From Calditrichaceae bacterium (lineage in GTDB: Bacteria > Calditrichota > Calditrichia > Calditrichales > JBFXGD01), in contig JBFXGD010000031.1 of the NCBI GenBank assembly GCA_050178385.1, forward strand, positions 1 to 28,285: DNA of 28,285 nt, in the 5' to 3' direction. Each line of letters opens with the position of its first letter. The first letter of the stretch is position 1. The translations under genes and the position numbers were made by a program. Shown in pieces: positions 1 through 23,370 of the stretch. A model generated the notes under the pieces. That model was not told the origin of the DNA, did not search any database, and saw only the letters and a program-made list of their open reading frames with translations.

Positions 1-336
1 TCCAGCCTGGAAAACAGTATCCAAATCATTTTCAGTCAGGTTGAAATTTTCAATGGCCAGAGTCGGACTGTATTTACGACGATTTCGCACAGGATTTGTT
101 TTTGTGAAAAAATGCCCTCTTGTCCTGTATCCGTTAATCAGGTTTAAGACAGCTAACTCTTTTTGACTGGATTGGGTCTGGATCTCACCCGGGGCGGTAT
201 TAAGTTTAGCGAAATCAAATCCCTCAAAAAACTTACGCCAGCTTTCTTCAACCGAATCGGGATTCTGCTTGTATTCCCTGTATAGCTGATCAATATATTC
301 AGGATGCGCGTTGTCTATATATGAGTAATTATCCAT
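1..336 (-). CDS. sucA: 2-oxoglutarate dehydrogenase E1 component, N-terminal part (runs off window edge)
   Basis: Manual translation from ATG at 336 gives MDNYSYIDNAHPEYIDQLYREYKQNPDSVEESWRKFFEGFDF...KELAVLNLINGYRTRGHFFTKTNPVRNRRKYSPTLAIENFNLTENDLDTVFQAG, open to base 1. This matches the SucA N-terminal signature (YIDxLYxxYxxDPxSVxxSWxxFF; LIxxYRxRGH). Not in the ORF track. Confidence 0.93.
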   Translation of the reverse strand, partial: MDNYSYIDNAHPEYIDQLYREYKQNPDSVEESWRKFFEGFDFAKLNTAPGEIQTQSSQKELAVLNLINGYRTRGHFFTKTNPVRNRRKYSPTLAIENFNLTENDLDTVFQAG

Positions 337-1909: not shown

Positions 1910-2863
1910 ATGAAATCAGCTACGCGACTACATATCGGAATTGACTTAGGCGGTACAAAAATAGAAGGCGTCGTGCTAAATTCGGGTTTTCATCAGTCTG
2001 AAAATTTGGATAATTTTGTTATCATCAGAGAGAGGATCCCAACACTATCAGAAAACGGATATGAGTTTATTCTAAACCGTACAGCTGATTTTATTTCTGA
2101 GCTTGTGAAAGAGTCGGGTGTTGAACTAAACCGGATGACGATCGGGATCGGATTACCCGGCGCGGTATCCAGAACAACCGGGCTGGTTAAAAATTCCAAC
2201 ACAACTTGCCTTATTGGCAAAGATTTCCGGAGCGATCTGCAGCGTATTTTGCAACATCCCGCCGGATTTGAGAATGACGCGAACTGTTTCGCCCTGGCGG
2301 AATCGACCTGGGGAGCGGGTAAAGGCTATAACCTGGTGTTTGGAGCAATCATCGGGACCGGGGTTGGAGGAGGCTTGATTTACCGGGGAGAAATAGTTCA
2401 GGGAAGACAGAATATTGCCGGAGAATGGGGTCACTCACTTTTAATCCCTGACGGGCATGAATGCTATTGCGGAAAGAAAGGCTGTGTGGAGACTTATCTT
2501 AGCGGACCGGCAATAGAAAACTACCTCTTAAAACCTGAAGGGATTAATTCCCCTGCGAAAGAATTTAATCACCTTTATGATGAGACTGATATTATCACAA
2601 ACAGAATTATCGATGCTTATTGTAATTACTTTGGAATAGCCGTGGGCAATCTTATAAACATTCTTGATCCGGATATAATAGTTCTCGGCGGCGGTGTCAG
2701 CAATTTCCGGTTTTTGTACGACAAAGGGATTGAGGCCGTAAAAAAGAATATTTTTAATGATGAACTTCTCACGGAGATTAAACAAGCTGAATTTGGGGAT
2801 TCAGCAGGGGTTTTTGGAGCTGCCCTGGTTGGCTTGAAGCAGAATCAAAAAAAAGGCCGCTGA
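1910..2863 (+). CDS. ROK family sugar kinase (Mak/NagK-like)
   Basis: GIDLGGTKIE ATP-binding motif, ENDANCFALAE, GTGVGGG, AGEWGH, Zn motif CYCGKKGCVETY. No N-terminal HTH, so kinase rather than repressor. Confidence 0.9.
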   Translation: MKSATRLHIGIDLGGTKIEGVVLNSGFHQSENLDNFVIIRERIPTLSENGYEFILNRTADFISELVKESGVELNRMTIGIGLPGAVSRTTGLVKNSNTTCLIGKDFRSDLQRILQHPAGFENDANCFALAESTWGAGKGYNLVFGAIIGTGVGGGLIYRGEIVQGRQNIAGEWGHSLLIPDGHECYCGKKGCVETYLSGPAIENYLLKPEGINSPAKEFNHLYDETDIITNRIIDAYCNYFGIAVGNLINILDPDIIVLGGGVSNFRFLYDKGIEAVKKNIFNDELLTEIKQAEFGDSAGVFGAALVGLKQNQKKGR

Positions 2864-2873
2864 TCAGCGGCCT
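2847..2873 (-). terminator. Intrinsic terminator of the lipoprotein/beta-barrel operon
   Basis: Perfect palindrome AGGCCGCTGATCAGCGGCCT (2854-2873) followed on the minus strand by a T-run (A8 at 2847-2854 on +); 16 nt downstream of the barrel gene stop. Confidence 0.8.
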
Positions 2874-2889
2874 CAAAAATTAAACTTTT

Positions 2890-4176
2890 TTAAAAGAGCA
2901 ATTTCATGCTCAGTGCAGTAAACATACCATTTGAAGCAGACGGCCACATCGCCTTGTTCATAGCATAGGAATAATCAAAGTGGAAATGAGAAAAATTCAG
3001 ACCGAATCCCATGCCATACAGGAATCCCACTCGCCCCCCGACGGCCATTCCCGCTCTTAGAGGCAGCCATCGAAGCGGAAAGTACTCAGCTCCCGCGCCT
3101 ATCCGTGGCGTGATCGTGTTTCCAAATTCCTCATTCAATCCCTGTTGCCACTCCGCGGTTAGTGTCAGATTATCAAGCATTTGGAATGCGGCCCCCATGG
3201 ACATTTTTGCCGGTAAATTGGTTCGGAATGAGCCTGCCGAATAAGTGGTATCAACAGATACAGAATAATCTTCATCAGAATCCTCATAGACATTTGTGGA
3301 ATCCGATTCAATTATAACATTCATTTCCGTATTCTTGTCCCAGTTGATGCTGGCGAGAACATTTGTAAAACTCAGCGAAAATGTCCACACATCATCAAAC
3401 ACAGTGCTGGCGCCGAGATCAAATCCAAATCCGCCACCGGGAAATGGTTCTGATTCAGGAGTAGCGGTCCGGTATTCAATCTGAAGATTTGTTTTCGCGG
3501 TTTCAGAATCAATTTTTTCAAGCAAAACATCTGATGTCAGCGACTGCGCGACGGCAATTCCAAGATAATAATTGACATTTATACCAACAGCCAGATCCGA
3601 AAATCCGGGAAGATAATCTTCAATATCGATCAGATGCGCATAACCAAAAGACAGCTTCATCGCGGCATAAGCATCCACATCAAGAAAATTTGAATCGTGA
3701 TATAAATATTCTCGACTGAGATCTTCTCCAAAGAGGACAATTTCAAACGGTTTTTTGGGCATCGTACCTTTGCTGCTGCTTATAATCTGACTGCTAAAAC
3801 CAAACCGGTCATAGGCAATCCCGAATAGATTGGCAGAAATATCAGAATATAATTTAAACCCGTCATCAGGGATTAAATCCAGGATAGCTTCCTTATCCGA
3901 ACGGTTCCAATGTCCGTTATTGCCTTCATCTGTAAAATATTCATTATAATCATTAATCGAAAAACTGCTGTTGAATATGGAAGCATTTAACGAAAAAAGA
4001 TTTAGTTCTAAAGTACTCTCTCTTTCCAGAGCAAGATTTGCCGGATTCCATGACATTGCAGAAATGCCGCGGCTGAGCGCTGTATAATTCCCCGCCATCC
4101 CAAGACTTGCTCCATCAACTCCCTGCCCGAAAGCGGTAGAAGCGATTAATATCATTAAAATGATTAAATTCTTCAT
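2890..4176 (-). CDS. Outer-membrane beta-barrel protein (DUF5723/FadL/PorV-like superfamily)
   Basis: Sec signal peptide, N-terminal GASLGMAGNYTALSRGISAMSWNPANLA plug motif of FadL/PorV-like barrels, GFGFDLG, GAEY..LPLRAG, amphipathic strands and C-terminal Phe. SD AAGGA upstream. Confidence 0.75.
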   Translation of the reverse strand: MKNLIILMILIASTAFGQGVDGASLGMAGNYTALSRGISAMSWNPANLALERESTLELNLFSLNASIFNSSFSINDYNEYFTDEGNNGHWNRSDKEAILDLIPDDGFKLYSDISANLFGIAYDRFGFSSQIISSSKGTMPKKPFEIVLFGEDLSREYLYHDSNFLDVDAYAAMKLSFGYAHLIDIEDYLPGFSDLAVGINVNYYLGIAVAQSLTSDVLLEKIDSETAKTNLQIEYRTATPESEPFPGGGFGFDLGASTVFDDVWTFSLSFTNVLASINWDKNTEMNVIIESDSTNVYEDSDEDYSVSVDTTYSAGSFRTNLPAKMSMGAAFQMLDNLTLTAEWQQGLNEEFGNTITPRIGAGAEYFPLRWLPLRAGMAVGGRVGFLYGMGFGLNFSHFHFDYSYAMNKAMWPSASNGMFTALSMKLLF

Positions 4177-4192
4177 AACTTTCCTTATTTTA

Positions 4193-6292
4193 TTAATCCT
4201 CAGGATCGATCAGAACATCAATATAAAGTACGCCGCCGACTATCAGTTCATCATCTTTACGGAAAGAAACGGATGATTCGGTTGGCTGAACTTCAATCAT
4301 AGTGCCCACATAAATTGGATCATACTGGAATATATCAATCTGTCTTTCAGTCAATTTAATCCTGTTTGTACTTTTCACCCGTGTATCAACATACCCGTTC
4401 TGATTTGCAACGCCCGGTTCGACGCTGCTTGAAATGATAACTTTTTTTGATGAATCCGTAATAACGTCCGAATAAAAATCGGTAGTATCCGTGGCGATGA
4501 ACAATTTTACATTCGCCCCGAGAGGAAGTCCGTTGTCCAGGTTTAACTGCGCATCCACATTTGTAAAATATTTATCAATATCATCACGTTGATCCCGGTC
4601 AAGATCAGCTTCGCTAATTATTTCAATTTCACCTTTGTACACTAGACTATTTTCAAAACTGACGGAAAGGGGCGAATCAATATAATAATTGACCCAGAAT
4701 TTATCATCAAGAGACACACTTCCGGTACCCTCGATAACCGCGCGACCCGATACGATGATATCTGTCGGCAATATCGCCATCAAATCCACAATACTGGGTG
4801 ATGTGGACTCCGAATCAATTATTATCGTCGTTTTTGCCGGATCACCCGATACACCACGTCCTACTAATTCACTTATATGAACCTGCACTGAATCCGTAAT
4901 CGTATTGGTTTCAGCGGCTTTGTGATACCCTGTTATATCGAGTTCAAGAGAAATATCATAATCAATTTCATTAAAAGCATCTATGGTCAGAATCAGTTTA
5001 TCCAGTGTGATGTTTCCGTCGACATTTGCAACGTCAAGCAAATCATTCTCTTCTACAGGTTCGATATCAATTATAACCGGCTGGATGTTACCTTCAAAAT
5101 ATGAGAAATAGATTGAATCAGAAGTAAAATCAACCGTCACTGAATCATCGGATGTAATTTGAACATACCCGCCGCTCTCTTTCGACACAGCATAAATTTC
5201 ATAAATAATATAATCGATCGACTGGCCGGGATTTTTGTCATTCTGAAACCGGAGATCACTTATATCCAATGCGATATTTGTTTGCTCACCGGCAAGCACT
5301 AATTCCGAAACCTTCTTCGGATTATTCTGCTGATCCACAAAATTCGGTAAAGTCAGCTCGATATCAAGATCTACCGAAAGGCTGTTATTCAGATTGGCAT
5401 ATAAGATTCCCTTCCCGACTGATGCGAAATAGGCAATGTCGCCGTCAAGATCCAGTTCAACCGAATCACTTTCCGATATTTCCTGTGGTGGCACTATCGC
5501 TTCCGCGCTCGAAACTTTCATATCCGAAATCAGAACTTCACTATAATAATGGCTGTCCAGATCTTCTTGAGTAATAGTGATTGGACCACCGGTTCCTGCA
5601 ATCGGAATAGAATATTCCAGTCGCAATTCATTTGAAATATATTTCCCTGCCAGATTCGAAATATCGCTCTGCCCAATGCTGTTTGCGGGAACTGGGTCGC
5701 TAAAAAATACGGTGTCTATAAATCCCCCATCCGGATCCCCCGAGCGCGTGTCATCATATATGGTAATGTACATGCCGCTCTCAATGTCAACAATAAGACT
5801 ATTGTAGAATTTTATTTGTAAGGAAGCAGAATCGATTGCGGCATAATTATAGTCTTCCATAAGGACGTACTGCGGCAAAGGTTCAAGCGTCATCGGATCG
5901 ATTTGAACGGTCTGCCCTGGAGATAGATTTAAGGAAGACATCAATTCGGAAAAAGATACATTACCGGTTAGTTCAGCCGGTGGAGCGTTCAGATTTATAG
6001 TGCCTATTGATTCGGCATAATGATCATCATCGGGATCGAAGGCCATCTCAGCGGGATCTATCTTTTCAGGCTCCGTGGAATCGGATATACTGATCACTAT
6101 TATCGAGTCACCTGTCAACGCATCAAAACCCGCCACAACCGTAGAATCATTTATAATATCTTCCATGGTCATGTTTTCTGCGGGGAATTCGATCGCCCAC
6201 TGGCTGTCCCAGGTAGGAAGACTCGGCTCATTTACCGTGCAGGCACTAAACATACCCGTCACGGCTATCAATATTATTAACCTGTTCAGCAT
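4193..6292 (-). CDS. Large acidic beta-rich lipoprotein of unknown function with about 140-aa internal repeats
   Basis: Lipobox FSA-C18, D/E/S/I-rich composition, SD AAGGA; only 16 nt separate it from the barrel gene. Confidence 0.75.
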   Translation of the reverse strand: MLNRLIILIAVTGMFSACTVNEPSLPTWDSQWAIEFPAENMTMEDIINDSTVVAGFDALTGDSIIVISISDSTEPEKIDPAEMAFDPDDDHYAESIGTINLNAPPAELTGNVSFSELMSSLNLSPGQTVQIDPMTLEPLPQYVLMEDYNYAAIDSASLQIKFYNSLIVDIESGMYITIYDDTRSGDPDGGFIDTVFFSDPVPANSIGQSDISNLAGKYISNELRLEYSIPIAGTGGPITITQEDLDSHYYSEVLISDMKVSSAEAIVPPQEISESDSVELDLDGDIAYFASVGKGILYANLNNSLSVDLDIELTLPNFVDQQNNPKKVSELVLAGEQTNIALDISDLRFQNDKNPGQSIDYIIYEIYAVSKESGGYVQITSDDSVTVDFTSDSIYFSYFEGNIQPVIIDIEPVEENDLLDVANVDGNITLDKLILTIDAFNEIDYDISLELDITGYHKAAETNTITDSVQVHISELVGRGVSGDPAKTTIIIDSESTSPSIVDLMAILPTDIIVSGRAVIEGTGSVSLDDKFWVNYYIDSPLSVSFENSLVYKGEIEIISEADLDRDQRDDIDKYFTNVDAQLNLDNGLPLGANVKLFIATDTTDFYSDVITDSSKKVIISSSVEPGVANQNGYVDTRVKSTNRIKLTERQIDIFQYDPIYVGTMIEVQPTESSVSFRKDDELIVGGVLYIDVLIDPED

Positions 6293-6343
6293 AAGAATCC
6301 TTTCAAATCATTAAATATTAAATAGTATGACTTACTTTATCTT

Positions 6344-6370
6344 ATATCGACTAAAATCTTTTGGGCTTTA
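6344..6370 (-). promoter_or_regulatory. Putative sigma28 (FliA/SigD/WhiG-type) promoter
   Basis: Minus strand reads TAAA-gcccaaaagatttta(15 nt)-GTCGATAT versus consensus TAAA-N15-GCCGATA(A/T): one mismatch, exact spacing, about 50 nt upstream of the ATG at 6292. Confidence 0.6.
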
Positions 6371-6436
6371 TACTCATGACACTTTTTCTTAATTTCCGGT
6401 AGGGTTTAATCTTAAAATAGCAGAGAAATCAAAAAA

Positions 6437-6868
6437 GTGAATGACCGCTATCACATTTTCGATCATACCGCCGATGCCGGTATTGAAATTACGGGAAAAA
6501 CCATTGCCGACATTTTTTTAAACGCGGCAGCCGGAATGTACCATATTATGGGCATATACGATACGTACTCCGGCACGGTCATAACACGGCTGAAATTAAT
6601 TGACCCGACTTTGGAAGATTTACTCGTCTCTTTCCTGAGCGAATTGAATTTTTTTATCACGGTACGAAAAAAAATTCTTTGTACCGCCATGAATCTTTCA
6701 ATTGAACAAATCGGGACTAATCTTGTATTGAATGCCCACGCCGGAACTTATGATTTGAGTATATCAGATTTGTCCGCATTAAGGGAAATAAAATCCGTTA
6801 CCTACCATCAGCTCCTAATTGTCAGGGAACAAGATGAATATCTGGCACGTGTTATATTTGATATTTAA
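6437..6868 (+). CDS. Archease (RtcB activator)
   Basis: N-terminal Y..FDHTADAGI, L..LLVSFLSEL, IKSVTYH and C-terminal FDI motifs; 143 aa; GTG start; directly upstream of rtcB. Confidence 0.93.
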   Translation: MNDRYHIFDHTADAGIEITGKTIADIFLNAAAGMYHIMGIYDTYSGTVITRLKLIDPTLEDLLVSFLSELNFFITVRKKILCTAMNLSIEQIGTNLVLNAHAGTYDLSISDLSALREIKSVTYHQLLIVREQDEYLARVIFDI

Positions 6869-6882
6869 TCCGGGAGCATCTC

Positions 6883-8337
6883 ATGAAATTTAAAGAATAC
6901 ACCATTAACAAGTTAGATGACTTTCTGTACGAAATTCCGAGGATCGGAGGTATGCTGCAGCCTGGCCGAATCTACGCGTCACCGGCAATGATGAATGATT
7001 TTATTAAGGAAAAAGAGCCGCTCCAGCAGGTGATCAATGTGGCACATTTGCCCGGAATTGAAAAGTATTCACTGGCTATGCCAGATATTCACTGGGGATA
7101 CGGATTTCCAATCGGCGGAGTGGCGGCAACTGACTGGCAGGATGGGGTAATTTCACCCGGTGGAGTGGGATACGATATAAATTGCGGTGTGAGACTCGCT
7201 TCAACATCACTTACGCATACCGACGTCATTAAACGATTGCCCGCTTTGATTGAGGAACTTTTCAGGGTAATTCCGACCGGTCTCGGCTCTTCAAATGCGA
7301 TAAAAAAGCTTGGTAATTCTGAGATGAAAAAATTGCTTGAGCAGGGCGTCCCGTGGATCATTTCTCAGGGGTACGGCACTGAAAATGATATTGAGAATGT
7401 TGAAGAACGGGGACATCTGCGCCAGGCAGATACGGCTGCCGTGAGCAGCAGGGCTATGGAACGCGGGCAGGTTCAGATGGGAACGCTTGGTTCCGGGAAT
7501 CACTTTCTTGAAGTCGATTTGGTTGAACATATTTATCACGCTGAAGCTGCTGAAACCATGGGCCTTTTTAAGGACCAGATCGTCGTCTTAATACATACCG
7601 GTTCTCGCGGATTTGGCTATCAGGTATGCGACGACTATCTGAAAGTTATGGGAAAAGCAGCGTCAAAATATCGAATCAGCCTGCCTGACCGGCAGCTGGC
7701 ATCGGCTCCGGTCCAGAGTCCGGAAGGGCGTGAATATCTGGCGGCAATGGCATGTGCCGCAAATTTTGCGTGGTGCAACCGTCAGGTAATAATGGATCTT
7801 GCAAGGAAAGCATTCAGAAAAGTATTCGGCATGCCGGATGATGAATTAAATTTCCGTCTGATTTATGATGTGTCACATAATATTGCAAAAAAAGAAACAC
7901 ATACTGTCAACAACCGGGAAAAGCAGGTTTGTGTTCACCGAAAAGGCGCGACCAGGGCTTTTGCGCCGGAAAATCCCGATATTCCCGAGCGCTACCGCAA
8001 AATCGGTCAACCGGTACTGATACCGGGTGATATGGGACGATATTCATTTATTTGTACCGGAACTCTTAAAGCCGAGTCGGATACATTTGGAAGCACCTGC
8101 CACGGAGCCGGAAGAATGTACAGCCGAAATCAGGCAAAAAGGATGTCTCAGGGAAGAAATCTTATCAAAGAAATGAACGACATGGGCGTTGTCGTCCAGG
8201 CGCGGGGTAAAGCAACTATCGCCGAGGAAATGCCTTATGCATATAAAGACGTCGCTGATGTCGTTGATATTATGCACCATAACGGCATCAGCCTTAAAGT
8301 TGCAAAACTGAAGCCGCTTGGCGTCATAAAAGGCTGA
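6883..8337 (+). CDS. rtcB: RtcB RNA 3'-phosphate/5'-OH ligase (archaeal/eukaryote-like long form)
   Basis: MPDIHWGYGFPIGGV, GGVGYDINCGV, GTLGSGNHFLE, HTGSRG, HNIAK, HRKGAT, STCHGAGR, EEMPYAYK and C-terminal IKG are all intact. SD GGGAG. Confidence 0.97.
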   Translation: MKFKEYTINKLDDFLYEIPRIGGMLQPGRIYASPAMMNDFIKEKEPLQQVINVAHLPGIEKYSLAMPDIHWGYGFPIGGVAATDWQDGVISPGGVGYDINCGVRLASTSLTHTDVIKRLPALIEELFRVIPTGLGSSNAIKKLGNSEMKKLLEQGVPWIISQGYGTENDIENVEERGHLRQADTAAVSSRAMERGQVQMGTLGSGNHFLEVDLVEHIYHAEAAETMGLFKDQIVVLIHTGSRGFGYQVCDDYLKVMGKAASKYRISLPDRQLASAPVQSPEGREYLAAMACAANFAWCNRQVIMDLARKAFRKVFGMPDDELNFRLIYDVSHNIAKKETHTVNNREKQVCVHRKGATRAFAPENPDIPERYRKIGQPVLIPGDMGRYSFICTGTLKAESDTFGSTCHGAGRMYSRNQAKRMSQGRNLIKEMNDMGVVVQARGKATIAEEMPYAYKDVADVVDIMHHNGISLKVAKLKPLGVIKG

Positions 8338-8340
8338 ACG

Positions 8341-8862
8341 TTATCTTGCGGATTCTTGCTCTTCAGGGACAAGCACCTTACTGCGTACGATAAAGGCTTC
8401 TTTATAACCGTAATCCTTTGCGATATCCCGGATTCGTTCCGCATCAATCCGATCGATTGCATTTCCCACCCTTACCTTGTAAAGCGGCGCTTCAAACGTG
8501 AGATAAGTCTGAAACTTCAATACCCCAAACTGATCTGTTGCTTCCTGCTGAACAAGCGTGGCTGTCTCAATATTTTTGGTTGCCAGAATCTGCACCCGAA
8601 AGCCATCGACCTCCACAACCGGTTCCATGGCTGTCCGGTTTAAACCGGTATCCTTGTCAGTCCCCGCCTTTACATCCCCGGAAGGATTTATTTCTTTTTC
8701 CCCGATAATAATATCGTCATCGTTGAGGGTAAGGGGATCAAAAGATTCGTCAAATTTTCCTTTTTGAACAGATTCTTCGGGAACAGACTCTTTTGATGTC
8801 GATTTTACGGATGCGCAGCCGTACATCATCCCAATTATCAAAAGACCAATAAGTATTCTCAT
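8341..8862 (-). CDS. SPOR-domain lipoprotein
   Basis: Lipobox MYG-C, disordered linker, C-terminal GFRVQILA...PLYKVRVG...GYKEAFIV SPOR pattern. SD GAGGA. Confidence 0.85.
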   Translation of the reverse strand: MRILIGLLIIGMMYGCASVKSTSKESVPEESVQKGKFDESFDPLTLNDDDIIIGEKEINPSGDVKAGTDKDTGLNRTAMEPVVEVDGFRVQILATKNIETATLVQQEATDQFGVLKFQTYLTFEAPLYKVRVGNAIDRIDAERIRDIAKDYGYKEAFIVRSKVLVPEEQESAR

Positions 8863-8871
8863 ATTTTCCTC

Positions 8872-9627
8872 TTAAATAATTTCAAAATTTTCCCGCTGCA
8901 CCCAACCGGTTTTCCCATCAGCAAGTTTTACTTCAAACCACATCTGATTTTTTCGTTCAATCCGTACTTTAGTGCCTTCATGAACAACAAATAATTCAGT
9001 TCCGGTATTCGATGGTTCAGCATACAATGTCACTGAAGGATTTAATATAATGCCGTATTTTTCCGTTTCAAAAATATAAATTTTGTTGATCATGATGAAT
9101 GAAAACAACAAAAAGACCGTTAATACCACGGCAAAAACACCCTTAAGTCTGCCGTACCTTCCCCGGAATCTGTAATAAAGCCGCAATCCGCCAATCATAA
9201 TTGTCATCCAGAACAATCCACTTACGATAATGGTCAGCAGGCTGATATTAAATAGATTGAGAAGAGCATCCCACCAGACCGCCAGAAACAAACGCGGCGG
9301 ATTTTCAATCTGATCCACTAACCTGGCCTGCACCAGTTTCAGATTCTGTTCTAATGCCTCATCACCCTTTAAAAATTTTTGTGCTCGTTCATAAGACAAT
9401 CTGGACTTCCCAATTTTCCCGAGACGATAATACGCATTCCCGATATTGAAATGAAGTTCTCCGCTTTCATATCCTTCATTTAAAATCTTATTGTACACTT
9501 CGAGCGCCTGTTCAAATTTGCCCTGCTGATACAATTGATTAGCCTGGACAAAATACTGCTGTGCATCCTGAGCAAAAAGACCTGTAACAGAGATGAGTAA
9601 GAGAATAGCAAAAAGTTTTTTAATCAT
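8872..9627 (-). CDS. batE: BatE-like TPR + TM + SH3 protein
   Basis: Signal peptide, TPRs (FNIGNAYYRLG), two TM helices, SH3-like LFVVHEGTKV...WFEVKLADGKTGWV. Start at 9627 chosen for the TAATG overlap with the batD stop (track start 9636). Confidence 0.85.
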   Translation of the reverse strand: MIKKLFAILLLISVTGLFAQDAQQYFVQANQLYQQGKFEQALEVYNKILNEGYESGELHFNIGNAYYRLGKIGKSRLSYERAQKFLKGDEALEQNLKLVQARLVDQIENPPRLFLAVWWDALLNLFNISLLTIIVSGLFWMTIMIGGLRLYYRFRGRYGRLKGVFAVVLTVFLLFSFIMINKIYIFETEKYGIILNPSVTLYAEPSNTGTELFVVHEGTKVRIERKNQMWFEVKLADGKTGWVQRENFEII

Positions 9628-11447
9628 TATATCCATTTCTCAAATTTTGTTAGAATAGATTTTGCCCGGTCATAAAGAACTTGCTTATCCAGGTCATTTG
9701 CCGGAATATTCGCGAATTGACGGAAATCGCTTTCATCGAGAACTTCCAGATACTCCTGAATTTCACCATCGGCAATTCCCTTATGACGCAGTGATTTTTC
9801 CAGATTTTGTTTTCCGAAATCAGTCAGTTCCAAATTGAGTTTATTCTGAACGAACCCCTGCAATGCCTGCGATATGGAGCGGTAGAACTCGGATTGATTT
9901 TCGAGGGATATCTTCTTCCTGGCGTCGGCCAGCGCTTTGCCCGCAATTCTCCCCGCTTTTTTTCTTCTCGCCAGCTCTTGATTCCCGGAAAGTCTTACCT
10001 GATAGTCATTATATACAGAAAAGCCGATAAACAGCATCAGTCCTGAAAAAATACTGATCCAGAATGAATAGCTCATGTAAGGCTTCTTGCCAACACGGAC
10101 AAACGCGGTATTTTCTTTTATAAATCTTATATCCTGTCCCAAAAGCGACACTTCCTGCCGGTTAAATTGCTGCATACCGTTTGCGGCGCTTAGCTGCCCG
10201 TTTTCACCGCTGACCATTAGTTCTATCGGTTTACTCGAAATCGTCATGTATCGTTTCTGCTCAGGATCAAAATATGAGAAGGAAACGGGTTTAATATTAT
10301 ATTTTCCCGCAATTCGGGGAATCAGTATATATTCTGCCTTTTTTTCTCCACGAATTACTGAACCACTATTGTTGATATCGGTTGCAATTTTGGGTTCATA
10401 TTTTTCGATATCAGGCGGAATCAGCGGAGCAGGAAGATCAGTCAATTTGATATTTCCGACACCTGTTAAAATTTGTTTCAGAGAAATGGCATTATTAATA
10501 TTTGCAGTTTGCTTATCCACCGAAACATCAAAATTAAACTGGCCAACCGCACCTCCGAACCCTTCTGGTTTACCGCTTTCGGGCAATGGTTTCACCTTTA
10601 TTTTCACCGGATTGCTGCTGATCGATTTCTGTATTGTTGAACCGAGGGCGTCATTAAAGAAGTTATCAAAAAGGCCCCTCTGAGTTTGACGTGACCTTAC
10701 AACCGCTTCCATCGTAATCAGCATAGGATCGATTGTTAATTCTCCCGTCTGAGTCGGAAAAACAGCGATTTCCTTAAGAATAGCCACATTATAATTAACG
10801 CCATTAACAATTTCATTTTCGATAACCGGTTGCTGCGGCATTTTGAATTCTTCCGTCCAGAACCCGGCATTCGACGGCATTTTATCTATGTTGTAACCTC
10901 GAACGTTAACTTTGAAATAAAGTTTATACTCGATAATTATCTGTTCACCCAAATAGACATTTGTCTTTGAGACATTCGTTTTAAGATATAAATTTTCACC
11001 GGCAATATCAGCATCGGTTGTTGATTTTGGCCCGGCCGGGTTTGGGCTTGACGGTTGACCGGAAGATTTGTCTGCGTTAATAATTATTTCTTCCGATTCA
11101 AGAAGTTTGCCGTCAATGGTCACAGACGCCCTGCCTATTTTAAGTTCACCCGATTTACGAGGTTTCAGATAGAATGAGAAAGATTTTGACGACGTCATAT
11201 TACCGTTGATCCATTGAATGCTTGTTGATGAATTAGGACCGGAAAGAATATAAAAATCTTCAAATTCGGGAAACGTGACATCCGGAAGTGAAGTTGATTT
11301 TCCGGAAAGTTCCACCGAATACTGGATTTGTCCATCGATATTGACATTATTTGTGTTCACAACCGCACGGATAGAGACATCCCCGGAGAAGGCTGTACCT
11401 GTTGTAACAACCATAAATATTAATGTTAAAAATATTCTGTTTAGCAT
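9627..11447 (-). CDS. batD: BatD-like protein
   Basis: Signal peptide, GPNSSTSIQWING, GFWTEE, FGGAVGQF, G.GNIK, FSYFDP, QDIRFIK, then a TM helix and cytoplasmic tail. Start at Met8 of the track ORF (11447), just after the batC stop. Confidence 0.88.
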   Translation of the reverse strand: MLNRIFLTLIFMVVTTGTAFSGDVSIRAVVNTNNVNIDGQIQYSVELSGKSTSLPDVTFPEFEDFYILSGPNSSTSIQWINGNMTSSKSFSFYLKPRKSGELKIGRASVTIDGKLLESEEIIINADKSSGQPSSPNPAGPKSTTDADIAGENLYLKTNVSKTNVYLGEQIIIEYKLYFKVNVRGYNIDKMPSNAGFWTEEFKMPQQPVIENEIVNGVNYNVAILKEIAVFPTQTGELTIDPMLITMEAVVRSRQTQRGLFDNFFNDALGSTIQKSISSNPVKIKVKPLPESGKPEGFGGAVGQFNFDVSVDKQTANINNAISLKQILTGVGNIKLTDLPAPLIPPDIEKYEPKIATDINNSGSVIRGEKKAEYILIPRIAGKYNIKPVSFSYFDPEQKRYMTISSKPIELMVSGENGQLSAANGMQQFNRQEVSLLGQDIRFIKENTAFVRVGKKPYMSYSFWISIFSGLMLFIGFSVYNDYQVRLSGNQELARRKKAGRIAGKALADARKKISLENQSEFYRSISQALQGFVQNKLNLELTDFGKQNLEKSLRHKGIADGEIQEYLEVLDESDFRQFANIPANDLDKQVLYDRAKSILTKFEKWI

Positions 11448-11451
11448 ACGA

Positions 11452-12225
11452 TTACCAATCTTTTCCAACCTGTCTGCGTCCTCCGCGAACCGGCGGTTTA
11501 TTTTTCTGAGATTCCTGCTCTTCTGCGCGCAGCGCGTTTAAAATCCGTTCTGCTTCCTGCCGGTTCATCTGCTCTTTATCTTCTGAAGCCTGCTGTTGTT
11601 GCTGCTGCTTTTCTTCTTCTGCAGCCTTCTGCTGCTCTTGCTGCTGTTGTTGCTGTTGCTGCTCGTCCTTCTCTTGTTTTTTATCTTTCTGCTGATCCTG
11701 CTCACCGGATTGCTGATCTTCGCTCTTTTCTCCGGATCCCGATTGCTGTTGCTGCTGTTGTTGATTTTGCTGATCCGGCTGCTGCTTTTGTTTATCAGCC
11801 ATTTCCTTCAATTTTGCTCTGGCAAGTTCAAGATTATACTTGGCATCAAGATCTGAAGGATTCAACTCGAGTGATTTTTTGTACGCGTCGATACTTTCCT
11901 GTAATTTATCCTGCTGAAAATAGCTGTTGCCGATATTGTAAAATGCTTTGGCTGTCAGCCCTGTATCCTTGCTGCCTAATAATTTTTGATTTGCTTCGAT
12001 AGCTTCATCATACTTTTTCATTTTATAGAGCGCATCGCCCTGATTGAAGATTGTTTTCTCACTCTGCGGATCATCAAGAAGCGCATCCTGATACTTTGCC
12101 AGAGCATCCTCATATTTTTCCTGTTTGTACAGAGAATTCCCCTCGTTCACTTTTGATCTGATTCCCTGCCCAAATGCAAATTGGGTTAACATCAATATGA
12201 TAAGAATATATAGTAAATTTTTCAT
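11452..12225 (-). CDS. batC: BatC-like TPR protein with Gln-rich linker
   Basis: Signal peptide, TPRs (FYNIGNSYF, AKYNLELA), Q/E/K low-complexity region, AERILNAL and terminal KDW. ATGA overlap with batB. Confidence 0.88.
   Translation of the reverse strand: MKNLLYILIILMLTQFAFGQGIRSKVNEGNSLYKQEKYEDALAKYQDALLDDPQSEKTIFNQGDALYKMKKYDEAIEANQKLLGSKDTGLTAKAFYNIGNSYFQQDKLQESIDAYKKSLELNPSDLDAKYNLELARAKLKEMADKQKQQPDQQNQQQQQQQSGSGEKSEDQQSGEQDQQKDKKQEKDEQQQQQQQQEQQKAAEEEKQQQQQQASEDKEQMNRQEAERILNALRAEEQESQKNKPPVRGGRRQVGKDW
11590..11790 (-). repeat. In-frame CAG/CAA (poly-Gln) tracts in batC
   Basis: Several runs such as tgctgttgttgctgctgc on +, encoding Q7-Q8 tracts on the minus strand. Confidence 0.85.
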
Positions 12226-13259
12226 AAGCCGTTCATCTGATTATTTGCAAATTTCTTTTTTCGCACCGGTAAAAATGTTTCAATACCAAGCAGAACAATC
12301 GCCAGTAAAATAAAAATCTGAAACCTGTCTTCATACTGGGAAAATTGTCTGGATTTTAATTCCTTTTTTTCCATTTTGTTCACATCATCATAAATTTGCC
12401 CCAGTTCTGTTTCACCCGCGCTGGAAATATAATACTTTCCATTGGTTAAATAGGCAATTTTTTGAAGCGTTGTTACATCGAGTTTTGTCGTGACCACATT
12501 TCCTTCCCGGTCTTTCTTAAAACCCGCCGGACGGCCAGAGCGGTCATAGACAGGAATCGGCACTCCCTGAGGTGAACCCAGCCCGATTGTGTAAATTAGA
12601 ATTCCCTCTTTTGCGGCCTCTTCCGCGGCGGTAACAGGATCGGTTTCATGATCTTCACCATCGGTAATCAAAATCAGAACCTTATGCTTCCGCTCCTTCT
12701 GATTAAACGCTTTCATGGAAGTTTTTATAGCGTCACCCAAAGATGTTCCCGGTACCGGTATCAAATCCGTATCCATCATTCTGAGGAATAATTTTGCCGC
12801 CGAATAATCAAGCGTCAGCGGACATTGAACATGGGCCATTCCGGAAAATGCCACAAGACCGATGCGGTCGCCCTGTAACAAATCAATTAATTTTGCGATT
12901 TGATGTTTTGCTTTCTCAAGCCGGTTCGGCGCGATATCCTCTGCTTTCATGCTCAGTGAAACATCCAGAGCGACAATGATGTCCACGCCTTCACGCTTCA
13001 CTTCTTCCAGCCGCGTCCCGATTTGAGGATTTGCCAGCGCTAAAATAAGCATACTGTAGGCGGCGGTAAACAAAACCGCTTTCCAAATCACCCGCCCCTT
13101 ACTGAAACCGGGCATCATTTTCTTTAACATTTCTATTTGGCCGAAACTTTTCAGCAACGCCTCTTTTTTCCTGAAAACAAAAATGTAGAAGCCGATGATC
13201 AAAAATATGCCCCAAAGCCCGTGCAGCCAGAATGGGTTGTCAAATCTCAATACTTCCAT
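12222..13259 (-). CDS. batB: BatB-like vWA-domain protein
   Basis: N-terminal TM pair with LALANPQ, MIDAS DVSLSM, PNRLEKAK, CPLTLDY, GTSLG, LITDGEDH, C-terminal TM. Confidence 0.9.
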   Translation of the reverse strand: MEVLRFDNPFWLHGLWGIFLIIGFYIFVFRKKEALLKSFGQIEMLKKMMPGFSKGRVIWKAVLFTAAYSMLILALANPQIGTRLEEVKREGVDIIVALDVSLSMKAEDIAPNRLEKAKHQIAKLIDLLQGDRIGLVAFSGMAHVQCPLTLDYSAAKLFLRMMDTDLIPVPGTSLGDAIKTSMKAFNQKERKHKVLILITDGEDHETDPVTAAEEAAKEGILIYTIGLGSPQGVPIPVYDRSGRPAGFKKDREGNVVTTKLDVTTLQKIAYLTNGKYYISSAGETELGQIYDDVNKMEKKELKSRQFSQYEDRFQIFILLAIVLLGIETFLPVRKKKFANNQMNGL

Positions 13260-13288
13260 GCTTACCTATTATATTTTACCGTTTAATG

Positions 13289-14284
13289 TCAGGGTAGTTT
13301 TCTAAAATAAGTATTACTCAATATCAACTCGGCTATTAACAATACAAGACCAATTCCCAGATAGTAAATGAATAATTCTTCATATCTTGTAAACTCATTC
13401 ACATCAATTTTGGTTTGCTCCATTTCACCGATTTCGTCATAAATTTCTTTCAGCTTTCTTTCATCAGTCGCCCGGAAATACTTTCCTCCGGTAATCCCTG
13501 CAATTTCCCGTAATACCTGTTCATCTATTTCAACTTCCATCGGAACGTACCGCCTTCCAAAAATCGGGTCATCAACGGGATACATGGCTGTCCCTTGCTT
13601 TCCCGCTCCGATAGTGTAAATTTTGAGGCCGAAAGAATGGGCAATTCTTGCCGCGGTGATCGGATCAACCTGACCACGGTTATTAACTCCGTCAGTGAGC
13701 AAAATTACCACTTTACTTTTTGCCTTACTGTCGCGCAGACGGTTGGCCGCGTTGACAATTCCCATCCCGATAGCGGTTCCGTCCCAATCTTTATCGGCGA
13801 CTTTTACTTCTTCCAGTAGTGTCAGCAACACTCCGTAATCCAGCGTTAAAGGGCATTGAGTAAAACTCTCACCCGCAAATACCACCATTCCGAGACGATC
13901 GTTTTTTCGTCCCTTGATAAAGTCTTCCGCGACGTTTTTAGCTGCTTCAAGTCGATTATTTGGTTTAAAATCCTCGGCCAGCATACTGCTTGAAACATCC
14001 ATGGCCATGACAATATCAACACCTTCAGTCGTTACGAGTTCCTCCCTGCTGCTTGATTGCGGCCTCGCAAGTGCCAGGATGAGCATTGTAAAGGCAATCA
14101 ACCGGGCAAGAAAAAGAGTATGATACAGGCGCTGCTTTGCGCTGCTTCCTAATCTCTTTATTAATCCGACATCAGAATATTTCATTTTACCGCTGTTTTT
14201 CCGGTTTCCGCGTATGTACCAGTAAACCATACCGGGCAGAATCAGCAGTAACAGCAGATAGGCAGGATCAGCAAATCGGAACAT
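13289..14284 (-). CDS. batA: BatA-like vWA-domain protein
   Basis: MFRFADP start, LALARPQ, MIDAS DVSSSM, DGTAIG, LLTDGVNN, TGGKYFRA, C-terminal TM ending RKLP. Confidence 0.92.
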   Translation of the reverse strand: MFRFADPAYLLLLLILPGMVYWYIRGNRKNSGKMKYSDVGLIKRLGSSAKQRLYHTLFLARLIAFTMLILALARPQSSSREELVTTEGVDIVMAMDVSSSMLAEDFKPNNRLEAAKNVAEDFIKGRKNDRLGMVVFAGESFTQCPLTLDYGVLLTLLEEVKVADKDWDGTAIGMGIVNAANRLRDSKAKSKVVILLTDGVNNRGQVDPITAARIAHSFGLKIYTIGAGKQGTAMYPVDDPIFGRRYVPMEVEIDEQVLREIAGITGGKYFRATDERKLKEIYDEIGEMEQTKIDVNEFTRYEELFIYYLGIGLVLLIAELILSNTYFRKLP

Positions 14285-15633
14285 TATCTCTCTGAACTCT
14301 CCTTTAAATTGTCATCTATAATCAGATCATTTTTGGATTTAAATATTTCATCAAGCACCGCTTCATCCACCGCAACAACGTCTCCGTCAAGCGGATTTTT
14401 CACATATACAATACCCTTCTCCCTGATTCCGATTTCCAGTTCGGCCGTTCTCATATCACCTGCGAAAATCTCTATCATACCGGCCGGGCTTGTCAGTCCG
14501 TAAGGAAACAGATAAGTAGGTTTTTCAGCGACAAATTTCTTCACTGTCAAATTTATCAGAGTATTCAAAATATTTTCAACTTCCCGGATTTTGACTTTTT
14601 CACCTGTTTGCAGTTGCCAGACATCGAGCGTATCCTTGAATAATGTCAATAGATTTCCCTTATAAAGCAGATTTATTCGATCGGCTTTTTGTAAATTAAA
14701 ATCCAGTATTTTTTTGTGCCGGAAATCGTAAATATTTTTATTCAAAGAATTTACAAAAGAACTGTCAACCTCATAGATCAGAGTTCTTTTTTCGTCAGCC
14801 CCGTAAATAATGTCCCTGTCCGGAATGGAGAACCTGACACCCGATTCCAGTTCATCCGCGCTGTTCCTTAATTCGATGCTGACCGCGGGATTGGACAATC
14901 CGTAACTATTCAGTCTGGTTTTATGTTCTGATGCGACGGATATAATCCTGCTGCTGTTCAGATTATTCAGCATGTTTTCCACCAGCGATTGATCTGCTTT
15001 TGTTCTTAAAGGCCTACTAAGCATCCAATCGCTTCCATCTTTTATAAATTCAAAATTTCCATGCTGATTCTTTAAAAGAATAGTTTGTATATTAGTCATT
15101 TCAAAATGTGTAACTTTTTTATCACGTAATTCATAAAGTGATTTACCCGCGTTCTTTTTAAGATTCGATCCGGTAAGACAGACCACAGAATCCGACAGCG
15201 AGACATAGATTTTTTCTCCGGCCGTAAAATCATTTCCGATTTTAACCGAGTCCTTTGAACCGTTAATGCCCGTCAGGACAATCATTGTCGCGTCATATGT
15301 TAGTCCGTATTGTGACATCTGTTCGCTTCTTGCCGGAAAAGGTTTTTCAATCTTCGCGTCTACCAGCGATTGTAACAAGGAAATTATGGAAGATCGATCT
15401 GCTCCCGTCAAAACCGGTCTTTCAATCCGCCAGCCGGTTTTATCTTTTGCCAGGACAATATGTTCATTCTGCCTGATAATCTCAATCAAATTGATATTGT
15501 CCATCTCAGTCCGGAAAAGTTTTTCTGCTTTTTTACTCTTTGATTTCTGTTCATTGCCACCATCAATTTCGAACAGAAAAAATAATGCGGCTAAACCTAA
15601 TGCAGCAAAGAGAATAATGATTGTTTTACGCAT
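14284..15633 (-). CDS. DUF4340-domain membrane-anchored periplasmic protein (three repeats)
   Basis: N-terminal anchor; three modules W-x-(I/L)...(AD)...LL..L / YGL..P / LRDKK-like (WRIERP..ADRSSI, WMLSRP..ADQSLV, WQLQTG..). Stop overlaps the batA start (TAATG). Confidence 0.8.
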   Translation of the reverse strand: MRKTIIILFAALGLAALFFLFEIDGGNEQKSKSKKAEKLFRTEMDNINLIEIIRQNEHIVLAKDKTGWRIERPVLTGADRSSIISLLQSLVDAKIEKPFPARSEQMSQYGLTYDATMIVLTGINGSKDSVKIGNDFTAGEKIYVSLSDSVVCLTGSNLKKNAGKSLYELRDKKVTHFEMTNIQTILLKNQHGNFEFIKDGSDWMLSRPLRTKADQSLVENMLNNLNSSRIISVASEHKTRLNSYGLSNPAVSIELRNSADELESGVRFSIPDRDIIYGADEKRTLIYEVDSSFVNSLNKNIYDFRHKKILDFNLQKADRINLLYKGNLLTLFKDTLDVWQLQTGEKVKIREVENILNTLINLTVKKFVAEKPTYLFPYGLTSPAGMIEIFAGDMRTAELEIGIREKGIVYVKNPLDGDVVAVDEAVLDEIFKSKNDLIIDDNLKESSER

Positions 15634-15728
15634 TATTTAAGAGTTCCTTATTCCAGTATTTTACTATTCTTTTAACCATGATTTTTATTAAAACTTTCTA
15701 CGCCTGTTAATACTGCGCGATTAATTTT

Positions 15729-16772
15729 TTAATGATTTCCTGCCTCATCGTTCAGCTCCGCCGCTGGTAGCAGCGGATCATTCTCCTGATTATTTTTTTC
15801 CGGTTCGGATTCATAGATTATCTTTGTCTGATCAACAAAAGATCTGGCTTTTATTTTCAGGGGTTCTGTTTCATCCATACCCGGAGTATGTTTGGCAAAT
15901 TTAACAAGATCAGACATGACAAGCACATCTAACAGGTCTTGTCTGATTGACTCATCCGCGAGATGTTTTTTTAAATCTCTCATAATTTCAGTCGTTGTTT
16001 CCTCGAGCGCCGATAAATAGTACCGCCCTTCAAGATATCTGCGCAAAATATCCGACAGCTCCGTAAAAAATAACTTCAGGTGTCCTTTTTCCAGTAAATC
16101 TGACCTGAAAAGCTTGTCGAGCGCTTTTAAAGCAATCTGGTGGGCCGGCTCCGGCGTTGGAGGCGGGCTGAATATATATCCTTTTTCTTTTCGTCTTTTC
16201 CAGAACCGGAATCCTAAATAAACGAGTACGCCGACCAAAAGAATTACGCTAAGAACTAAAATCCAGAATTTATAATTGAACAGAATATCGATCGGTGGTT
16301 TGACATCTTTTAATTCGGGCGCCTCATCGTTTGCCAGAACCGATTTAACATAAATATCTATCGGCGATGCATCAATAATCTGATACCTGTTACTCGTATC
16401 CGAGGGGAAATAAGCAATCGGAAACGGCGGGATTGTAAACCTACCCGTATCAAAAACGGAAATACTGAAATCATACCGTTCGATAATCCTGCCATCTTTT
16501 TTTTCAGGATCATGGAACTTATAATCCTTTATCTCAAACATCCCAAGGTTCAGGCCTTCTCCGGGTTTTTCGATTCGAAGATTTTCCGCGCGGTCGATGA
16601 TAATCGAGTAGAGAATGCGGTCTCCAATGGTAATCGTTGATGTATCGACCATCGACTGGACTTCAATCAGTACATTTTCACTCGCTTTAGCCCTATGTGT
16701 ACCGGCGATTATAAAAAGAAATATAACGAAGATTATATTTTTTATAATATTATTACTGTATCCGATTTTCAT
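15729..16772 (-). CDS. Bat-cluster single-pass membrane protein (BatD-like Ig domain + TM + cytoplasmic helical domain)
   Basis: Signal peptide, VDTSTITIGD, FDTGRFTIPPF, LKDVKPP, TM then KRRK, LRRYLE.RY...ALEETTTEI, DLVKFAK. Matches the conserved gene usually found between DUF58 and batA. Confidence 0.8.
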   Translation of the reverse strand: MKIGYSNNIIKNIIFVIFLFIIAGTHRAKASENVLIEVQSMVDTSTITIGDRILYSIIIDRAENLRIEKPGEGLNLGMFEIKDYKFHDPEKKDGRIIERYDFSISVFDTGRFTIPPFPIAYFPSDTSNRYQIIDASPIDIYVKSVLANDEAPELKDVKPPIDILFNYKFWILVLSVILLVGVLVYLGFRFWKRRKEKGYIFSPPPTPEPAHQIALKALDKLFRSDLLEKGHLKLFFTELSDILRRYLEGRYYLSALEETTTEIMRDLKKHLADESIRQDLLDVLVMSDLVKFAKHTPGMDETEPLKIKARSFVDQTKIIYESEPEKNNQENDPLLPAAELNDEAGNH

Positions 16773-17682
16773 ATATCTGAACCTTTTGAGCTTTCATTAA
16801 CCGGTCAGCCAAACTCTGGTAAGCCTGCTGTTGTTTTTCCATCGCCAGATCCTGAGCCGCCTGCTGTCTAACTTCACTAAATGGTTTCTGTCCGATTATT
16901 TTCCCGTCTTTATCTTTCTCAGTGTAATTTTCCTTGTTCGCCTTGTAATACAATTCGACATCGGCAGGCTCTATTTTTTTTATCTGACTTTCCATTTCCT
17001 TTTGCAGTAATTTTTCGGCCATCAGACTTTTTTGCGCGCGGAAAGTCCCTTCGATCACATCTTTTTCCTGGTCAAAACCCTGCCGCTTTGCTGAGTCATA
17101 AAGCAATTCCTGAAGGATATACTGCTTTAAAAATTCACGTTTTTTATTTTTATCACTAAATTGCTCACGAACATAAGCAGGCATCTTTGAAATCTCAAAA
17201 TCCAAATCGCCCTGTGTTAATTCGCGGGAACCGATTTTCGCCAGCACCGCGCCATCCCGGTGTTCCTTTACAGTCGATTTATCAAGCGCCGCTTCCTGTT
17301 CATAAATGCGGGCTGCATCCGTCGATCGCTTCAACCGCTCAAGGCAGCTTACAATCTGCTTACCCACATCGCCCTGCAGGCTGCTTTCCGGGAAAAGATA
17401 TTTTACCTTGAAATAAAATTCCAGTGCTTTCCCGTAATCGCCGATCCGATCGAAATATATGTTCGCGATGGTATAATATGTATTCGCGCTTCTTGATGCA
17501 TCCGGTTTTGAATCCCGTATATAGGCCAGATATTCATCCACGGCCGCCGTATATAATCCGTTGGTATAATAAGCATTTGCCAGTTTTAAACGGCTCTCTT
17601 CTGAGACACTTTCGTTCTTACCCTGAGAACAGGAAGTGATCATAAATCCTAAAAGTATATAAAAAATAATCTTTCTTGACAT
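16753..17682 (-). CDS. Lipoprotein: TPR domain fused to SurA/PrsA-like chaperone body lacking the parvulin domain
   Basis: Lipobox ITS-C (start at Met8 of the track ORF), TPR helices, then VLAKIG..ELT..D / L.Q.I.QELLY..AK..G / YYKANKENY / KPFSEVRQQ / L.KA.KVQIY. No HIL or GDLG parvulin motifs. Confidence 0.7.
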   Translation of the reverse strand: MSRKIIFYILLGFMITSCSQGKNESVSEESRLKLANAYYTNGLYTAAVDEYLAYIRDSKPDASRSANTYYTIANIYFDRIGDYGKALEFYFKVKYLFPESSLQGDVGKQIVSCLERLKRSTDAARIYEQEAALDKSTVKEHRDGAVLAKIGSRELTQGDLDFEISKMPAYVREQFSDKNKKREFLKQYILQELLYDSAKRQGFDQEKDVIEGTFRAQKSLMAEKLLQKEMESQIKKIEPADVELYYKANKENYTEKDKDGKIIGQKPFSEVRQQAAQDLAMEKQQQAYQSLADRLMKAQKVQIYENRIQ

Positions 17683-17742
17683 TTTTTTAACTCTCTCATC
17701 CACGAATTGATTCTGAATCGGATTAAGCTCGCTTCACATATA

Positions 17743-18744: not shown

Positions 18745-18793
18745 AATTCTTTTATCAATTTTATAGTTTGTTTTAGTTTTTGTGAATCACTTT

Positions 18794-23358: not shown

Positions 23359-23370
23359 TTTTCCCTGATT

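Follow-up and report, generated by a model that had tools for sequence, protein, structure and literature searches.

Two kinds of described system come close to the locus that we study here. On the side of regulation, the sigma28 family of the Actinomycetota is split into a copy encoded in the flagellar cluster and a copy outside it (WhiG1/WhiG2); in the available part of that report (PMC13595943) the non-flagellar WhiG copy targets type IV pili and cyclic di-GMP (c-di-GMP) enzymes, and a section heading states that WhiG1 and WhiG2 recognise similar promoters, while the accessible text of a second study has WhiG of Rubrobacter radiotolerans controlling type IV pili (PMC8325347). On the side of the envelope, BamG, a FadL-fold barrel of the Bacteroidota beta-barrel assembly machinery (BAM), is described in the accessible portions of two reports as binding the lipoprotein BamH by loops and N-terminus (PMC12578637, PMC12611786). 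Here we analyse a two-gene unit, a lipoprotein gene followed by an outer-membrane barrel gene, on the minus strand of a 28,285-nucleotide (nt) stretch of Calditrichaceae bacterium DNA (GenBank assembly GCA_050178385.1, contig JBFXGD010000031.1), hereafter the window. The initial annotation of the window had seen a sigma28-type promoter in front of the pair and had proposed an outer-membrane module co-regulated with flagellin, such as a flagellar sheath or pole component, or a barrel that exports or anchors a surface lipoprotein. The pair is undescribed, yet built from known folds: in the literature that we found (most subscription journals aside) DUF5723, the family of the barrel, is mentioned only in passing, no function is given for it or for DUF4621, the family nearest to the lipoprotein, and there is nothing on DUF4621, its member BDI_1231 or sigma28 in this phylum.

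We favour a reading in which the pair is a barrel-anchored surface lipoprotein that belongs to the regulon of a non-flagellar sigma28 factor, and we put the probability of this reading as a whole at about 0.5. Its parts are of unequal strength and are graded below where their evidence is given.

Within a single genome the promoter motif is no rarer than chance, and its significance comes from conservation only. Allowing one mismatch, TAAA-Nk-GCCGATAW has 76 matches in the window's own genome at k=15 against 43-110 at k=8-25; the exact TAAA-N15 motif occurs three times. For conservation we use 57 leaders of lipoprotein orthologues (68 loci minus 10 without a called start and one duplicate), from genomes that are related by descent, so that counts across the class are not independent. 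The last 150 nt contain TAAAG-N14-xxCGA, with one mismatch allowed in TAAAG, in 34/57 of these leaders; changing the spacing leaves 0-6, the opposite strand has 3, and shuffles average 2.9 and never exceed 8. Because this pattern was refined on the same leaders, two prior patterns were also run: the consensus used in the initial annotation (at most two mismatches, last 150 nt) is found in 17/57 orthologues at k=15 but in 0-3 at k=10-21, and the WhiG consensus pattern, as given in the available part of its source (PMC13595943), fits 39/57 leaders compared with 0-8 at other spacings. In the orthologous sites (own genus excluded, sites chosen by our pattern) T, A and A of the -35 element are fixed and G is present in 30/32, and the motif is retained beside unrelated upstream neighbours. 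Given this conservation at one fixed spacing we take the sigma28-type promoter as real, and the initial annotation's call of it is upheld by the orthologue scan suggested there.

Which sigma factor would read the site? The window genome encodes exactly one FliA-type sigma over the family cut-off, G000:C213 (TIGR02479, 233 bits vs 189.6), besides ten weaker sigma matches; the sigma28-family gene asked for in the initial annotation is present. Across the class such a sigma is present in 58 of 61 genomes, and many flagellated genomes carry two copies. A tree was built of 23 copies (15 genomes) and two outgroup rows; it places the copy of the window genome in a supported clade (97/95), which we call clade a; the other copies (clade b) are 29-36% identical and long-branched. 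Clade-b genes follow a MinD-like gene and a small membrane gene and adjoin flagellar genes (the names FlhF and FlhG for genes at the flagellar-cluster sigma are inferred). Clade a, in this order and in family f6, lies outside the flagellar cluster, where a response-regulator kinase gene follows it and a comF-like gene often precedes it, and is retained where flagellin was not found; in G039, G041 and G049 it sits where the flagellar sigma would be expected. Two segments, DELRKxDWIPRS and ESRISQIHS, are kept in clade a, where the flagellar-cluster copies read D(A/T)LR(R/K)EG..GRD and EARISQILN; we take these segments to be the readers of -10 and -35, and a literature search on FliA contact residues returned unrelated work only.

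The two sigma types go with two promoter motifs. In four genomes with a single FliA-type match each (G039, G041, G043, G059), the flagellin genes carry TAAAG-N14-xxCGA at matrix scores of 15.5-19.8, which ties this motif to clade a. The flagellin leaders of the window's own order carry instead TTAA(A/G/T)A..CGA, with a TAA-to-CGA distance of 20 nt in 11/15 (3 matches at 19). The lipoprotein form, at distance 21, occurs in 34/58 lipoprotein leaders and 0/15 flagellin leaders, and the flagellin form in 0/58 lipoprotein leaders; three more flagellin copies, beside a TPR-protein gene, also have the one-base-shorter form, and G046 has an intermediate flagellin motif, TAAAG at distance 20. A set of flagellin leaders of this order (L040-L053) shows the promoter-like motif TTTAA(A/G)AA..C(C/A)(A/C)CGA, which falls short of the classical sigma28 site by one base and goes along with the divergent flagellar-cluster sigma28. 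As for control of clade a itself, no site was found 5' of its gene in 13 loci (best score 7.0), and the RsiG motif E-x3-S-x2-R-x3-Q-x3-D has 0 exact matches in six frames of the genome, a search that a diverged anti-sigma would escape. Comparison across the genomes makes it very probable that the unit has a sigma28-type promoter belonging to the non-flagellar sigma.

Set beside the described sigma factors, the arrangement is familiar in outline and differs in detail. It resembles WhiG2/WhiG1, as far as the available text of that work goes, in the split between flagellar-cluster and outside copies and in the -35/-10 consensus, and WhiG2 in having pilB among its predicted targets; it differs in that the lineage is Gram-negative and of the FCB (Fibrobacterota-Chlorobiota-Bacteroidota) type, with no RsiG motif and no FlgM match found, and in that each copy is associated with a motif and spacing of its own, and it is the copy in the flagellar cluster that has diverged. 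The FCB placement is based on SprA, PorV and DUF5723; for Caldithrix abyssi, flagellar and type IV pilus clusters are reported (PMC5317091). With FliA/SigD it has in common the family match over cut-off and the classical promoter consensus, and in f5 and f7 clade a follows a MinD-like gene (FlhG-like, inferred) and serves flagellin-type sites; unlike FliA/SigD, in this order clade a stands outside the flagellar cluster and is kept when flagellin is not found.

The second gene of the unit encodes a barrel that the initial annotation had likened to FadL/DUF5723, correctly on both counts: it matches DUF5723 (PF18990) at 81.8 bits against a cut-off of 26.8, as a single copy in the genome, and its model (predicted local distance difference test, pLDDT, 88.7) matches the FadL family, with Z 26-28 to FadL, TodX and CymD, 25 to PorV and 22-23 to BamG. 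We count 14 strands from the predicted secondary structure; a Brachyspira DUF5723 model is described, in the part of the preprint available, as 16-stranded (10.1101/2025.01.03.631275). The N-terminal plug is the most conserved part (0.63) and keeps an NPA motif, N44-P45-A46, as in FadL/TodX and PorV, with N44 and A46 invariant in 39 rows; the barrel also has long extracellular hairpins and a C-terminal Phe. It differs from FadL/TodX and PorV in its 13-18% identity, in scoring below the PorV_fam (NF033709, 35 bits vs 90) and Toluene_X cut-offs, and in its fixed lipoprotein partner gene. The N-terminal extension of BamG (about 10 residues beyond FadL) is absent, since residue 19-20 of the model aligns to FadL residue 7-9, with signal cleavage before Gln18 judged by eye. 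The barrel had no match among plasmids.

The pairing itself is nearly constant. A barrel gene lies directly 3' of the lipoprotein gene in 58/61 loci with downstream DNA (another 7/68 loci end right after the lipoprotein and fall outside this count); one exception has a gene in between, and two, of one genus, have no barrel within 1.6 kb. G002 has two complete pairs in tandem (C1:3259971-3267300; L007, L056). Two pairs are also seen in several f2 and f8 genomes, and in G005 and G011 one copy only has the site.

The lipoprotein is strongly acidic (18% Asp+Glu) and falls in no Pfam or NCBIfam family (Pfam to E 0.1; no PF15414 match); a search of the PDB with its sequence profile gave nothing. Its model (pLDDT 86.7, predicted template modelling score 0.58) is nearly all beta, and fold matches over the ranges ~25-699, 63-543, 79-402 and 101-259 suggest a predicted rod in which four jelly-roll domains are nested, every inner one interrupting the one outside it. 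By hhalign these repeats show homology among themselves (E 7e-9 to 1e-3). The best fold match, and the only one to rise above background, is BDI_1231 of Parabacteroides distasonis (4h3w; Z 11.8, root-mean-square deviation 7.2, 294/312 residues; next Z 7.4), which spans the two outer domains and is listed by Foldseek too. We take 4h3w to be DUF4621, and the nearest named Atlas cluster is also DUF4621 (0.95); the lipoprotein thus appears related to DUF4621 by fold and language-model features only, with two extra repeats nested inside. At E 0.001 (50% clustering) it has 3256 relatives in length classes near 690, 980 and 1274 amino acids (aa), as expected if jelly-roll repeats are added; a single-sequence homologue search returned 6 proteins only, and a search on shorter forms 1. 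Its group-3 homologues are named KSB1, and the Atlas neighbours are mostly Bacteroidota and Fidelibacterota. Best conserved are the N-terminal tail and first strand, with C18 and P23 invariant and P26 and W28 nearly so.

Fold and gene pairing make it plausible, as the initial annotation had offered among its options, that the barrel anchors the lipoprotein, and pairing, conservation and the analogy to BamG-BamH lead us to regard anchoring as probable. The likeness to BamG-BamH (PDB 9n2d, 9hiv, 9hjm; judged from the available parts of its descriptions) lies in a FadL-fold barrel joined to a lipoprotein whose N-terminus is most conserved; the differences are the missing extension of the DUF5723 barrel, a lipoprotein that matches 4h3w with no BAM chain among the listed matches, and no link to bamA that we could see.

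Other predicted targets of clade a were sought with a matrix for which only lipoprotein sites from other genera were used. In the window's genome it gives 24 upstream matches at spacer 15, with many response regulators, kinases, and GGDEF-EAL and HD-domain proteins among the genes; for the GGDEF-EAL and HD-GYP-like genes, sites are known from this genome only. Six targets, hand-picked from the match lists, were tested in relatives: four kept the site, one failed and one was too rare. At spacer 15 and a score of at least 10, a site precedes pilB in 19/30, the TPR-protein gene in 19/30 and the HU-like gene in 14/30, with 0-4 at other spacers in each case, and the NtrC-like gene in 15/30 (other spacers 0-3; opposite strand 6). 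The pilB site lies 52-83 nt upstream in most of the pilB loci despite changing neighbours. The failed candidate, sprA, scores 12.7 in the window's genome but reaches at least 12 in 1/30 orthologues and at least 10 in 2/30, and became our negative control; the sugar-transferase gene has close relatives in 4/61 genomes only, too rare to judge.

Some features of these loci deserve mention in their own right. In the window's genome pilB encodes a PilB-like ATPase with MshEN and a C-terminal receiver domain and heads a complete-looking type IV pilus cluster (G000:C17:13733-25358, L260). The HU/IHF-family gene (G000:C57:19216-19545, L095) is unusually conserved, being present in 61/61 genomes at 73-100% identity, with its sigma28-type site ~150-190 nt upstream. 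The TPR gene (G000:C122:4170-5987, L104) encodes a 605-aa exported protein whose N-terminal domain is unassigned; it is found in 56/61 genomes with a conserved site, and adjoins a flagellin gene in G014, G022, G032 and G059. In one genus sprA lies ~7-9 kb from a flagellin-family (hook-associated-like) match (G014:C167, G022:C44, G032:C12). A strong site stands 5' of porV in G018 (L198, G018:C183), while porV of the window's genome (G000:C12:8721-9812) reaches only 8.3 at best.

How else could the site be read? That the pair is a sheath or pole component co-regulated with flagellin would fit a motif that is the classical sigma28 consensus and precedes flagellin in families f5 and f7, and a TPR gene of the regulon that adjoins flagellin in several genomes. 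However, flagellin, FlhA, rod protein and FlgM have no match in the window genome (94% complete), nor has flagellin in the sister genome (97% complete), and tblastn of relatives' flagellin and neighbouring open reading frames (ORFs) against the window genome returned only generic kinase and GTPase matches. A MotA family search gave 4 matches, indistinguishable from ExbB/TolQ, and was not used. The site, moreover, does not track flagellin: at a matrix score of at least 12 (matrix trained on these sites, 6/68 loci dropped) it lies 5' of the pair in 15/21 flagellin-lacking and 19/35 flagellin-bearing genomes, and in f5 and f7, the families in which flagellin is served by clade a, only 1/5 genomes has the site before the pair, and that one is without flagellin. 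The pair itself is present in 43/43 high-quality genomes, flagellin in 29/43 (in the class, 58/61 for the lipoprotein and 38/61 for flagellin). Flagellins of this order, including those beside the TPR gene, use the other motif. The flagellar interpretation of the unit is largely refuted, and as an explanation of the locus we hold it to be very improbable. A different challenge is that the motif is read by another factor, be it a repressor or another alternative sigma, or that it only reflects sigma70 promoters in the intergenic region that both gene sets share: in the window's genome the site is overlapped by TCGATA-17-TACTAT, which is sigma70-like, the divergent archease gene has a 9/12 sigma70 match (6347-6374) that uses the same CGA, and ten weaker sigma matches are at hand. 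Against this, sigma70 arrangements, which we considered and rejected, recur in only 1/35 (sense) and 6/35 (antisense) motif-bearing leaders, the motif persists with unrelated upstream neighbours, and genomes whose sole FliA-type sigma is of clade a have flagellin promoters that it matches; such an explanation seems improbable.

Two further alternatives concern what the proteins do. The pair could be a housekeeping module for outer-membrane assembly or scaffolding, like BamG-BamH or a type IX secretion helper, that is merely boosted by the orphan sigma. Its presence in every high-quality genome, like SprA, and its retention where the site is absent would fit such a role, as would the kinship of the barrel fold to BamG and PorV and the lack of a DUF4270 match in the window's genome, DUF4270 being what we take BamH to be. 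The barrel, though, is without the N-terminal extension that marks BamG in the available part of PMC12578637; the fold matches listed for the lipoprotein include no BAM-complex chain; the genome has a separate PorV on C12 and five other FadL-family matches; and the site precedes sprA in only 2/30. On balance we think this role unlikely. A little less likely still is an uptake system, in which, much as in SusC-SusD, the lipoprotein would serve a FadL-type channel for hydrophobic or small solutes as its lid or binding arm: the best structural matches of the barrel are FadL, TodX and CymD, the NPA motif is kept in the most conserved part, and the jelly-roll domains resemble binding modules (Z 6-7). 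Yet no catabolic or transport genes travel with the pair, whose neighbours are archease-rtcB or variable, and the genes predicted to be co-regulated belong to pili and signalling and not to metabolism; the lipoprotein is a long rod of repeats that varies in length; and PorV and BamG have the same fold and are not transporters.

Several observations weigh against the reading that we favour, a barrel-anchored surface lipoprotein under a non-flagellar sigma28. The site is absent from families f7 and f8 (0/9 genomes) and from 5/8 f2 genomes, all of which have the pair, whose production therefore does not depend on it. The tree does not resolve clade b as a single group, contig ends hide the gene upstream of the sigma in G000 and G001, and the flagellin motif was defined after viewing the sequences, on 20/38 flagellin-bearing genomes. 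Of the 24 own-genome matrix matches about half are expected by chance, since 22 are found at spacer 16, 15 at 14 and 7-14 elsewhere. The pair is not a pilus part, being wider than this pilB (58/61 vs 40/61 genomes) and keeping its site where this pilB was not found with our query (for example G024, G025, G028, G042, G044 and G048). Single-domain matches of the lipoprotein to carbohydrate-binding modules, at Z 6-7, stand at the level of a common arrangement. Finally, the acidic signal for surface exposure is marginal. The rule for surface-exposed lipoproteins of the Bacteroidota type, given in the available text of PMC12578637 as at least 2 acidic residues within six of the Cys, is not known to apply in this lineage; two acidic residues follow the Cys in only 18/49 lipoproteins and one in 29/49, our own included.

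With these points in mind, the favoured reading can be put as a sequence of steps. The clade-a orphan sigma (G000:C213) would very probably start a two-gene message near 6337 that ends at 2847. The barrel would be inserted in the outer membrane, the lipoprotein would be lipidated at Cys18, and the barrel would probably hold its conserved N-terminal tail and first domain, as BamG does with BamH. We lean slightly towards an acidic rod that faces outward, with a reach set by two to six or more jelly-roll repeats according to length class. More tentatively, the rod may serve attachment or binding to surface polymers, switched together with genes for type IV pili, c-di-GMP and two-component signalling. 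Display and attachment are thus weaker proposals than promoter and anchoring.

The layout of the unit is given in Table 1. Promoter, Shine-Dalgarno sequence, 699-aa lipoprotein, 16-nt gap, barrel and terminator all lie on the minus strand where the initial annotation had placed them, and its view of a self-contained unit is borne out by the orientation of the flanking genes and by the terminator (hairpin -17.1 kcal/mol, z -3.0, equalled by 2/200 shuffles), which overlaps the stop of a convergent ROK gene. With archease-rtcB divergent on one side and the ROK gene convergent on the other, the unit is closed on both sides and needs its own promoter.

Table 1. Features of the two-gene unit and its boundary (window coordinates, except where residues are given).
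Feature	Position	Strand	Basis or remark
-35 element TAAAG, sigma28-type promoter	6366..6370	minus	sequence
TAAA of the -35 element	6370-6367, then 15 nt to -10	minus	sequence
-10 element GTCGATAT (family pattern G(C/T)CGA)	6344..6351	minus	sequence and fixed spacing in orthologues
Predicted start site	near 6337	minus	position from promoter only
Shine-Dalgarno AAAGGA	6298..6303	minus	5 nt 5' of ATG; sequence
Lipoprotein ORF, 699 aa	6292-4193	minus	lipobox FSA-C18
Intergenic gap, 16 nt	4192-4177	minus	contains barrel Shine-Dalgarno AAGGA, 4186-4182
Barrel ORF, 428 aa, DUF5723	4176-2890	minus	Pfam match E=1e-22
Intrinsic terminator, 9-bp stem	hairpin 2874-2853, T run to 2847	minus	
Archease and rtcB, divergent, outside unit	6437..8337	plus	boundary
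Lipoprotein domains, predicted, approximate	residues 25-60+546-699; 61-78+404-545; 79-100+263-403; 101-262		boundaries are our reading of fold-match ranges

The lipoprotein promoter and that of the divergent archease-rtcB genes lie in a common 144-nt gap; archease-rtcB is divergent from the lipoprotein gene across three families of the order, and archease is the divergent neighbour in many orthologous loci. Elsewhere in the window, a 12/12 sigma70 consensus (854-882) stands 5' of a YitT-family gene, and a minus-strand gene run (8872-19783) resembles a Bat/MoxR operon, in which BatD is confirmed by Pfam and the other names are presumed from the sequence; a SPOR-domain lipoprotein gene follows that run at 8341-8862. 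Two adjacent genes that, on the evidence of their sequence alone, resemble tamA and tamB occupy 21469-27429.

The favoured reading joins two families of unknown role, DUF5723 and DUF4621-like proteins, into one likely barrel-plus-lipoprotein module in a superphylum where the placing and holding of lipoproteins on the surface is an open question. It would also supply a testable regulon for a sigma factor in a phylum that has hardly been studied, and would add an independent second example of a flagellar sigma redeployed to pili and signalling. A wider picture, which we offer as speculative and on present evidence rather doubtful, is that sigma28 exists in the class as two factors, each with its own promoter code: the flagellar-cluster copy, evolving fast, would read the shorter motif and drive flagellin; the canonical copy, freed from flagella and kept in nearly every genome, would have turned, with no anti-sigma known, into the master switch of life on surfaces, governing type IV pili, an HU-like protein and signalling. 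The best conserved target found would then be a surface appendage of a new kind, a DUF5723 barrel anchoring, and perhaps exporting, a DUF4621-type lipoprotein whose length is tuned by nested jelly-roll repeats, and two FCB-wide families of unknown role would thereby gain their first function. The apparent split of promoter codes between two sigma copies bears on how duplicated sigma factors avoid cross-talk.

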